DNA from: a virus
Taxonomy: Duplodnaviria; Heunggongvirae; Uroviricota; Caudoviricetes
Length of the DNA stretch: 35,852 nucleotides
IMG/VR virus record: IMGVR_UViG_2778261246_000001
Span: 1 to 35,852 of that record
Reading direction: 5' to 3' (one strand)
Below the pieces are notes generated by a model. The model was not told where the DNA came from, did no database searches, and saw nothing but the letters and a program-made list of their open reading frames with translations. Within the stretch, counting starts at the first letter, position 1; each line of letters starts with the position of its first letter. The position numbers were made by a program, and so were the translations under genes. Below are positions 15,114 to 15,267 of the stretch, piece after piece.

Positions 15114-15189
15114 GCCGACTTAGCTCAGTAGGTAGAGCAACTGACTTGTAATCAGTAGGTCACCAGTTCGATTCCGGTAGTCGGCACCA
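15114..15189 (+). tRNA. tRNA-Thr (anticodon UGU)
   Basis: Cloverleaf folded by hand: acceptor GCCGACT/AGTCGGC, D-stem GCTC/GAGC, anticodon stem ACTGA/TCAGT with loop CTTGTAA, T-arm, 3' CCA; near-identical to recalled E. coli thrU. Confidence 0.85.
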
Positions 15190-15192
15190 TAT

Positions 15193-15267
15193 GCGGGTAT
15201 CGTATAATGGTTATTACCTCAGCCTTCCAAGCTGATGATGCGGGTTCGATTCCCGCTACCCGCTCCA
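15193..15267 (+). tRNA. tRNA-Gly (anticodon UCC)
   Basis: Acceptor GCGGGTA/TACCCGC, anticodon stem TCAGC/GCTGA with loop CTTCCAA, T-arm GCGGG-TTCGATT-CCCGC, 3' TCCA; near-identical to recalled E. coli glyT. Confidence 0.85.

Follow-up and report, generated by a model that had tools for sequence, protein, structure and literature searches.

Two host-type tRNA genes, tRNA-Thr(UGU) and tRNA-Gly(UCC), ahead of the lysis genes in a Rac-type prophage of Escherichia coli

One question raised by the viral sequence record IMGVR_UViG_2778261246_000001 (IMG/VR) is why a temperate phage should carry near copies of two tRNA genes that its host already possesses, and where it obtained them. The record, analysed over its whole length of 35,852 nucleotides (nt) and referred to below as the window, contains exactly two tRNA genes as called by ARAGORN, a tRNA-Thr(tgt) and a tRNA-Gly(tcc), both on the plus strand and placed between a gene for a Q-like late antiterminator and a lysis cassette. 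Prophage-borne copies of the host genes thrU and glyT are real, ordinary and already known in kind, having been described in 2015 and annotated in RefSeq; by itself the pair matters little, and its value lies in its context. The likeliest function, favoured with moderate confidence, is that the two host-compatible tRNAs, transcribed late and under Q control, raise the capacity to decode ACA and GGA/GGG.

Two host-type tRNA genes in a complete prophage

Both genes are called by Rfam as well as by ARAGORN, with scores against RF00005 (gathering score 29 bits) of 73.8 bits for tRNA-Thr (E 1.6e-14) and 67.8 bits for tRNA-Gly (E 7.1e-13). A reading made from the letters of the sequence, without database searches (the sequence-only reading), had taken the two for genuine tRNAs with encoded CCA ends, almost identical to host thrU and glyT and lacking the intervening host tyrU, and it was right on each count: tRNA-Thr is identical to E. 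coli K-12 thrU at 76/76 positions, tRNA-Gly matches K-12 glyT at 72/75, and the trinucleotide TAT is all that separates them. The three changes in tRNA-Gly are C6U, C19U and G66A, of which the first and last fall on paired positions of the acceptor stem, where the replacement of C-G by U-A is compensatory, and the second lies in the D-loop. The 7-nt anticodon loops, CUUGUAA in tRNA-Thr and CUUCCAA in tRNA-Gly, both hold U33 and A37. As read off the sequence, tRNA-Gly retains G1-C72, C2-G71, G3-C70, U73, C35 and C36, which are to be read against the established synthetase identity rules for tRNA-Gly; with these positions kept, and with tRNA-Thr identical to thrU, charging of both by their cognate synthetases is expected.

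Near-identity of the mature tRNAs to thrU and glyT is also what would be seen if the pair were the chromosomal thrU/glyT region itself and not phage DNA, but the probability of this is negligible. The host order is coaA-thrU-tyrU-glyT-thrT-tufB, and tyrU, thrT, coaA and tufB are all missing from the window; its flanks align with the host locus at the level of shuffled sequence; and phage genes flank the tRNAs on both sides for >14 kb. A chromosomal tRNA locus was thus already refuted by host gene order, prophage annotation and flank alignment. The window is phage DNA throughout, as the sequence-only reading had assumed, and lies wholly inside a full-length Rac-type lambdoid prophage integrated at ttcA in the E. 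coli chromosome, a match that runs from intR and recET to the tail genes. Its central 15 kb are 99.9-100% identical to prophages of several E. coli genomes, and at least 80% of that stretch is covered in 137 genomes. In PEC422, the element starts with intR/xisR beside ttcA, the classical Rac attachment site, and continues with recT/recE, kilR, sieB, racR, ydaS/ydaT, replication genes, DUF1367 (NinB-like), YbcO and DUF1133, followed by the two tRNAs, essD/rrrD/rzpD, trkG, and the terminase, head and tail genes. Sequences identical to the window pair are annotated as tRNA-Thr and tRNA-Gly in RefSeq prophages, and the 154-nt pair has one match only in K-12, the host thrU-glyT locus.

The position claimed for the pair, between the antiterminator and the lysis genes, also stands. 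The upstream gene product matches Pfam DUF1133 at 345 bits, PF06530 (Phage_antitermQ) marginally at 28 bits against a cutoff of 26, and PHROG 753, 'anti-termination protein Q-like', at E = 9.5e-77, and its best match in the PDB is Q21 (6P18/6JNX), which is co-linear and weak (E = 0.11); from remote homology and position it is probably a Q-like protein, a putative antiterminator. On the downstream side the holin, endolysin and Rz genes have Pfam support (Table 1), the holin is identical to S21 of phage 21 at 62/71 positions, and the lysis genes of near-identical prophages are annotated essD/rrrD/rzpD in RefSeq. No credible gene was found in the 690 nt between tRNA-Gly and the holin, in agreement with the earlier statement that no toxin gene is present; neither a toxin nor any other cargo gene lies there. 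A RefSeq open reading frame (ORF) at 15386-15676 was rejected as spurious, since it has no Pfam or PHROG match, crosses a terminator and carries insertions or deletions in 683R6 and SerU-LTIIb. A sub-threshold Rfam match in the same interval is CyaR-like (23.6 bits against 47).

A widespread cassette and its link to the host locus

The two tRNA genes do not stand alone, for directly upstream of tRNA-Thr lies a decayed tRNA gene of the argN family. This remnant is 80-84% identical, over 66-69 nt, to an intact 77-nt tRNA with anticodon UUU or UCU (alignment score 24-28, shuffles 5 +/- 2) that is found 2 nt upstream of tRNA-Thr in four-gene cassettes, and it is identical to argN of phage 933W at 55/66 positions (83%). 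Its deletions, which sum to ~8 nt, align with the 3' strand of the anticodon stem, the variable loop and the 5' strand of the T stem. Neither ARAGORN nor Rfam at E <= 10 calls the remnant, and a third functional tRNA upstream of the pair was ruled out because no predictor calls one and the region is a pseudogene. No remnant of ileZ was found in 14787-15050. In the four-gene cassettes the gene with anticodon CAU is ileZ of 933W (76/76 in PhiR47_1), and the intact 77-nt gene is argN-like, with about 78% identity to 933W argN. Among 106 distinct cassettes, 47 consist of Thr-Gly only, 45 are of the type CAU-(UUU or UCU, 77 nt)-Thr-Gly and 6 are Asn-Thr-Gly, and the form with a remnant, as in the window, occurs in only 6. 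The fuller form of the cassette is ileZ-like(CAU), argN-like(UCU/UUU), Thr(UGU), Gly(UCC), and the window pair is its surviving half. The argN-like remnant, together with ileZ in sister cassettes, makes the resemblance to Shiga toxin (Stx) phages one of homology and not merely of a shared slot.

The junction that fuses the two genes across 3 nt is common, being present in 851 of 5,426 complete E. coli genomes (~16%), at 1,018 places and up to five times per genome, and no fewer than 120 IMG/VR contigs contain it. The species-representative genomes that have the junction are those of E. coli, Shigella flexneri (three copies), E. albertii, E. ruysiae, Citrobacter braakii and Enterobacter hormaechei. 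The cassette occurs behind different Q genes and ahead of different lysis cassettes. The fused Thr-TAT-Gly unit is thus a widespread mobile cassette, related to the ileZ-argN-argO genes of Stx phages and to the Asn-Thr genes of phage 21. A literature search for exactly this Thr-Gly pair in lambdoid or Rac phages found nothing specific. Three points go beyond the sequence-only reading: the third tRNA in decay, the fact that the cassette and the Stx-phage tRNAs are homologous, and the published connection, discussed below, of tRNA-Thr(UGU) with the P2-OLD defence nuclease.

Sister cassettes also contain genes with switched anticodons. The body of thrU is found with UUU (annotated as Lys) or with UCU (annotated as Arg), a glyT body carries UAC and is broken at its 3' end, and the 77-nt argN-like tRNA has either UCU, in a CUUCUAA loop, or UUU, in a CCUUUAA loop with an unusual C33. 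The anticodon-variant loci are L010 2450-2525, L005 1122-1197, L011 2529-2600, and L006 2948-3024 as against L011 2371-2447 (phage contigs by their labels in this analysis).

Capture from the tufB-operon region of the host had been proposed for this pair, and the proposal is supported for the cassette family, by gene order, the spacer and a fragment of tyrU, but not as a recent event in this prophage, whose flanks have no host homology. The window pair corresponds to two genes that are neighbours in the host tufB operon, with order and orientation unchanged. Of 127 cassette copies, 122 have TAT as the spacer, and this equals the T that follows thrU joined to the AT that precedes glyT in the host, a match that would arise by chance about 6% of the time by our own estimate. 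Two phage contigs from one genome, L146 and L147, also bear on the origin: in them a CAU-Lys-Thr cassette, with a DUF1133 Q-like gene and a methylase upstream, runs into the exact 8-nt thrU-tyrU spacer of the host and on into tyrU, which breaks off after ~36 nt and gives way to unrelated DNA. The truncated tyrU cannot be a mis-assembly with the host locus, because tyrU is intact there, and to judge from these junctions the two contigs preserve a trace of an exchange between phage DNA and the tRNA locus of the host tufB operon. The form is rare: no tyrU-fragment cassette was found in the 5,426 complete E. coli genomes. The host spacer upstream of glyT is in no phage contig. A further contig (L148 4860-5537), in which a glyT of host type links a phage cassette of four genes to AGATGT-thrT-leader-tufB, may be a real recombinant of prophage and host or an assembly chimera; it was set aside as proof of capture owing to possible chimeric assembly through the 75-nt repeat.

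These sequence comparisons give good support for a host origin of the cassette family, or at the least for exchange between it and the host locus. In the window itself, 14787-15113 and 15268-15954 align with the K-12 thrU-tufB locus at shuffle level and hold no trace of tyrU, thrT or the host spacers. Since the fused pair is old and widely shared and the flanks lack host homology, capture was not recent here; it was an old event or series of events, and not one carried out by this particular prophage.

Expression, codon supply and rival explanations

The non-coding block that follows the Q-like gene is a candidate for the unit of late promoter, Q-utilisation site and tR'. The 115 nt past the stop codon of that gene take in the intrinsic terminator with which the block closes (stem at 14867-14892 followed by a T tract, by terminator scan). 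The block is almost invariant in three phages with a DUF1133-type Q (the window, VL46 and 683R6), in which it is conserved better than the 3' end of the Q-like gene; divergence begins after the T tract, and phages that share just the Q module match the window to about 14902. With similarity ending so sharply after the T tract, the block behaves as expected of a Q, late-promoter and tR' module, and because the terminator at 14867-14900 precedes the tRNAs, these lie downstream of the first late terminator. Within the block, TTCGCA-AAGCTG at 14822-14833 matches the transcription start site and sigma-dependent pause element of phage 21 at 12/13 positions, a weak likeness that 51 of 1000 shuffles equalled (p ~0.05); no repeats resembling a Q-binding element were recognised in the post-Q region. 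Two other promoter candidates are putative: TTGATT-17-TTCAAT at 14783-14811, which was picked out manually, and the perfect TATAAT hexamer at 14969, which the promoter scan did not report owing to its weak -35 element. The motif GTGAATGT.TATAAT.CGCT is common to the window and to copy 2 of SerU-LTIIb despite their diverged flanks, and the promoter region of the window has no sequence similarity to pT, the putative tRNA promoter in the analogous place in 933W. Two incidental features were seen in this region. The sequence TTCAATTCCGGTA (window 14806-14818) resembles TTCGATTCCGGTA of the thrU T arm, with an alignment at shuffle level that is probably due to chance, and a G8 homopolymer just past the post-Q terminator (14903-14910) differs in length between the window and PEC422.

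From this layout, late Q-dependent expression of the window tRNAs is a reasoned inference, and constitutive expression from a weak promoter that belongs to the cassette itself is possible. Once the prophage is induced, the Q-like protein would modify RNA polymerase so that it passes the terminator at 14867-14900, and the tRNAs would be co-transcribed with the genes for lysis and morphogenesis. RNase P and 3' exonucleases of the host would release both tRNAs, with no need for CCA addition, and the host threonyl- and glycyl-tRNA synthetases would charge them, given sequences identical or nearly identical to those of thrU and glyT. As copies were amplified with phage replication, decoding capacity for ACA and for GGA/GGG would rise.

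What such capacity might be worth can be judged from codon usage. In E. coli, thrU and glyT are single-copy genes, and no other tRNA reads ACA and GGA, two codons that the host decodes poorly. The late genes of the window (20 genes, 5,551 codons) contain 12.8 ACA and 16.0 GGA codons per 1000, against 3.9 and 5.4 in a host set of 69 K-12 genes. For the test, tuf, ribosomal-protein and RNA-polymerase genes were removed, leaving 60 K-12 genes (ACA 4.3, GGA 6.4 per 1000), and odds ratios of 3.0 and 2.5 were obtained (p < 1e-9). Ranked by phage/host enrichment, ACA is 4th and GGA 5th of 61 codons, next after AGA, AGG and AUA, the codons decoded by other members of the cassette. Codon supplementation, which the sequence-only reading had proposed, is plausible in that it is compatible with this roughly 3-fold enrichment, but the same usage is seen in phages that have no tRNA genes, as set out next.

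Several points weigh against late codon supply as the function of the pair. In the tRNA-less controls, ACA and GGA reach 8.1 and 9.8 per 1000 in lambda and 11.4 and 13.5 in HK97, and the window does not differ significantly from HK97 (ACA p = 0.51, GGA p = 0.26), which makes the enrichment general to lambdoid genes and not specific evidence. Antitermination by the Q-like protein is an activity that we infer, the late-expression model resting on layout, and the promoter scan found no usable consensus sigma-70 promoter, its sole match lying inside the tRNAs. Erosion of the cassette is plain to see in the window lineage, which lacks ileZ and has a dead argN. Recombination with the host locus, and not selection, could be what preserves identity to the host genes, and L148 may be a case of such recombination. 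Finally, the role demonstrated by experiment for a lambdoid tRNA-Thr(UGU) is defence evasion and not codon supply (PMC12445682).

Two rival explanations concern whether, and when, the pair is of any use. It could be a neutral passenger, a hitchhiking relic without current benefit that is kept host-like by occasional recombination with the thrU/glyT locus. This is improbable, even though ileZ is gone and argN is a pseudogene in the window lineage, other copies include broken genes and anticodon switches, and exchange with the host locus does occur (L146/L147, possibly L148). Within the same 230 nt in which the argN-like neighbour has decayed by 16-20%, tRNA-Thr has accumulated 0 changes and tRNA-Gly one compensatory pair plus one loop change. 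Across 127-140 cassette copies, many of them related by descent, so that the figures are of copies and not events, tRNA-Thr equals thrU in 72 and tRNA-Gly equals glyT in 53; variation in the part of each gene that was fixed in the search pattern is censored in these counts. The phage-specific U6-A66 allele of tRNA-Gly is present in 60 copies, about 60/140, with U6 alone in 4 and A66 alone in 1, and its persistence implies that the host gene is not simply overwriting the phage gene. Other double changes also preserve pairs (Gly 48:64, Thr 5:68), the common variants are in loops or preserve pairing, and pair-breaking changes are rare, mostly confined to 1-2 copies, with the exceptions of Gly U11C (4) and Thr G42U/U43C (9-11). 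This pattern fits purifying selection with occasional decay. Alternatively, the pair could act as a lysogenic-conversion 'moron', with a promoter of its own that is active in the lysogen before induction and with transcription ending at 15543-15570. The dosage of two single-copy host tRNAs would then be doubled, which would help the host to express horizontally acquired genes rich in A-ending codons. A perfect TATAAT after the post-Q terminator, together with a strong terminator conserved in position, gives a promoter-gene-terminator layout; a putative tRNA promoter, pT, is annotated in the 933W record; selective retention by the host of phage-borne thrU, glyT and argO copies has been argued (PMC4539685); and many prophages retain the cassette, with as many as 5 copies in one genome. 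Against this, the -35 is poor and the site went unreported by the promoter scan, and in phage 21, as in JLK-2012, tR' and the tRNAs adjoin too closely for a promoter to fit between them. In the phage 21 record, in which these elements are experimentally defined, tRNA-Asn begins in the base after the tR' terminator, which leaves no room for a separate promoter; a placement of the JLK-2012 tRNAs between pR' and tR' was found to be wrong, as the phage 21 annotation puts the terminator before tRNA-Asn. In strain 13P484A, moreover, an IS1 inserted between the Q-like gene and the tRNAs (L001 16988-17685) has no obvious consequence. The moron explanation is accordingly held to be unlikely.

The remaining rival is anti-defence replacement, in which phage Thr(UGU), and perhaps Gly(UCC), would replenish tRNAs cut by nucleases like P2-OLD so that late translation can finish. 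P2-OLD is reported to block lambda by cleaving host tRNA-ThrU(UGU), the product of a single-copy gene and the sole reader of ACA, and phage tRNA-Thr(UGU) genes, including Thr21 of phage 21, rescue by resisting cleavage, for which both an altered CNG motif and a shortened stem are required (Govande et al., Nucleic Acids Research 2025, PMC12445682). The phage 21 gene occupies the same slot as the window pair, with the same S21-type lysis cassette, and both window tRNAs have the paired CNG plus A37 that define OLD substrates. Some sister copies carry a G42U/U43C allele of tRNA-Thr (JLK-2012, VL46), whose anticodon stem, ACUGA/UCAUC, is reduced to 3 bp with loss of the 3' CNG; this allele shows both features that the paper ties to OLD resistance, for which it is a candidate. 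Its VL46 form occurs in 14 of 5,426 complete E. coli genomes, and the JLK-type copy is missed by ARAGORN. Thr21, taken from the phage 21 record, has a 4-bp stem, GUCGC/GCGAA. The window tRNA-Thr, on the other hand, is identical to the host target: its anticodon stem, ACUGA/UCAGU, has the full 5 bp of thrU, C28-U29-G30 and C40-A41-G42 are intact, and A37 is present, so that, of the features that mark the resistant genes, it shares the UGU anticodon alone. Host-sequence tRNA-ThrU gives little or no protection according to PMC12445682, where tRNA-Gly is not reported as an OLD substrate. Because the window tRNA-Thr lacks the resistance features, the defence reading is unlikely for this copy, and replacement of cleaved tRNAs is quite doubtful as the function of the pair. 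Defence evasion may well be the reason that Thr(UGU) is so common in lambdoid cassettes. The broader proposal that the Thr-Gly cassette is kept mainly by an arms race with tRNA-cleaving nucleases (P2-OLD-like Toprim proteins), and not by codon usage, is given a similarly low probability. Under it, the window pair may represent a naive, freshly host-like state that helps only through mass replenishment in late transcription, and the G42U/U43C allele, Thr21, the UUU and UCU genes with a Thr body, and the C33 Lys(UUU) neighbour may represent escape or retargeting; if it were true, some defence nuclease would have tRNA-Gly(UCC) as a target that has so far gone unrecognised.

Late, Q-dependent codon supply thus remains the preferred reading of the window pair, and the wider significance of the locus lies in the family to which it belongs. 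The tRNA cassettes in the late regions of the Rac family, of Stx phages and of phage 21 all belong to one family, and the cassette decays and diversifies, with a pseudogene in the window and variants of anticodon and anticodon stem elsewhere. Its Thr member is the same tRNA species as the lethal target of P2-OLD, and the allele series constitutes a natural experiment on codon supply versus defence evasion in temperate phages.

A number of neighbouring features are recorded here for completeness. The strong terminator that follows the tRNAs is found at the same position in 683R6 and SerU-LTIIb, where the stems differ yet pair. Between it and the holin is a non-coding block of ~280 nt (15674-15950), near-identical in 683R6 and about 90% identical in SerU-LTIIb, and the convergent terminators plus this block may mark a small RNA on the minus strand; a small minus-strand ORF at 15797-15922 is disrupted in SerU by a 5-nt insertion. 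Farther upstream, a low-GC island at 10769-12568 (GC 0.34-0.38) contains two minus-strand genes, one for a 269-residue Cys-rich protein with no match in Pfam or PADLOC and the other for a 120-residue DUF1971/TehB-like protein. In related Rac-type prophages the same place is taken by a restriction endonuclease or by an 'adenosine deaminase', which points to a variable cargo or defence hotspot. A 262-residue hypothetical protein of PEC422 corresponds to two overlapping window ORFs, 7858-8229 and 8096-8647, suggesting a frameshift, and a ParB-like gene at 18861-19652 is intact in the window and annotated as a pseudogene (ynaK) in relatives.

Table 1. Features of the tRNA region in the window, and cassette loci in other phage contigs (marked by contig label)
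Feature	Position	Strand	Basis or remark
Q-like late antiterminator gene (DUF1133), 180 residues	14244-14786	+	Pfam, PHROG; putative
Post-Q conserved non-coding block	14787-14900	+	ends in intrinsic terminator; candidate late promoter / Q-utilisation site / tR' unit
TATAAT hexamer, perfect, with poor -35	14969-14974	+	read from sequence; possible promoter of the cassette's own (speculative)
argN-family tRNA pseudogene	15043-15110	+	decayed; directly upstream of tRNA-Thr
tRNA-Thr(UGU)	15114-15189	+	ARAGORN, Rfam; CCA encoded at 15187-15189
Spacer TAT, 3 nt	15190-15192	+	between tRNA-Thr and tRNA-Gly
tRNA-Gly(UCC)	15193-15267	+	ARAGORN, Rfam; CCA encoded at 15265-15267
Strong intrinsic terminator	15543-15570	+	scan; 7-bp GC-rich stem + T8
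Convergent intrinsic terminator	15615-15582	-	scan; partner of 15543-15570
S21-type holin	15955-16170	+	PF04971 'Bacteriophage P21 holin S'
Endolysin	16170-16667	+	PF00959
Rz/Rz1	about 16652-17128	+	lysis cassette 15955-17128 overall
tyrU-fragment cassette	L146 about 2150-2263	-	
tyrU-fragment cassette	L147 3164-3285		
Thr allele G42U/U43C	L007 2995-3070		
Thr allele G42U/U43C	L011 2450-2525		

Comparison with known systems

The slot occupied by the pair had been likened to that of tRNAs and toxin genes in Stx phages, and the 933W record bears this out. There the order is Q, pR', qut, terminators, the putative tRNA promoter pT, ileZ/argN/argO, a terminator, stx and S, and the window has the same slot and succession of a Q-like gene, a candidate pR' with terminator, tRNAs, terminator and lysis genes, with homologous tRNAs that in both cases all read A-ending or rare codons enriched in the phage. 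Unlike 933W, the window has lost ileZ and retains a dead argN, so that the genes still working are those for Thr(UGU) and Gly(UCC), where 933W has Arg and Ile tRNAs; it carries neither stx nor other cargo, and its Q is of a different family (DUF1133).

Phage 21 is likewise lambdoid and has a Thr(UGU) gene in the same slot, an S21-type holin and a Q of a family to which the window protein is, on a weak match, distantly related. Its Thr21, which is paired with Asn and not with Gly, departs from thrU at 26 positions and has neither CNG motif in the host form, whereas the window tRNA-Thr is host-identical. Thr21 resists P2-OLD according to PMC12445682, and the window tRNA-Thr is without its features. 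Compared with the host operon, the window pair keeps the order, the orientation and the encoded CCA ends and lacks any similar leader, spacer or trailer.

The closest precedent is in Shigella, where extra copies of glyT, argO and thrU lie together, flanked by phage genes, and have been interpreted in a similar manner (McDonald et al. 2015, PMC4539685). This is the same phenomenon and very probably the same cassette family, given 3 fused junctions in S. flexneri; in contrast to the present case, that copy-number survey includes no Rac-type context, fused 3-nt junction, decayed neighbour or allele series. The Thr and Gly tRNAs found in T4-like phages are about 85% identical to the window pair, but these phages are virulent, and their genes form part of larger clusters (Ser, Thr, Pro, Gly, Leu and others), have diverged further from those of the host, and stand in another genomic context.

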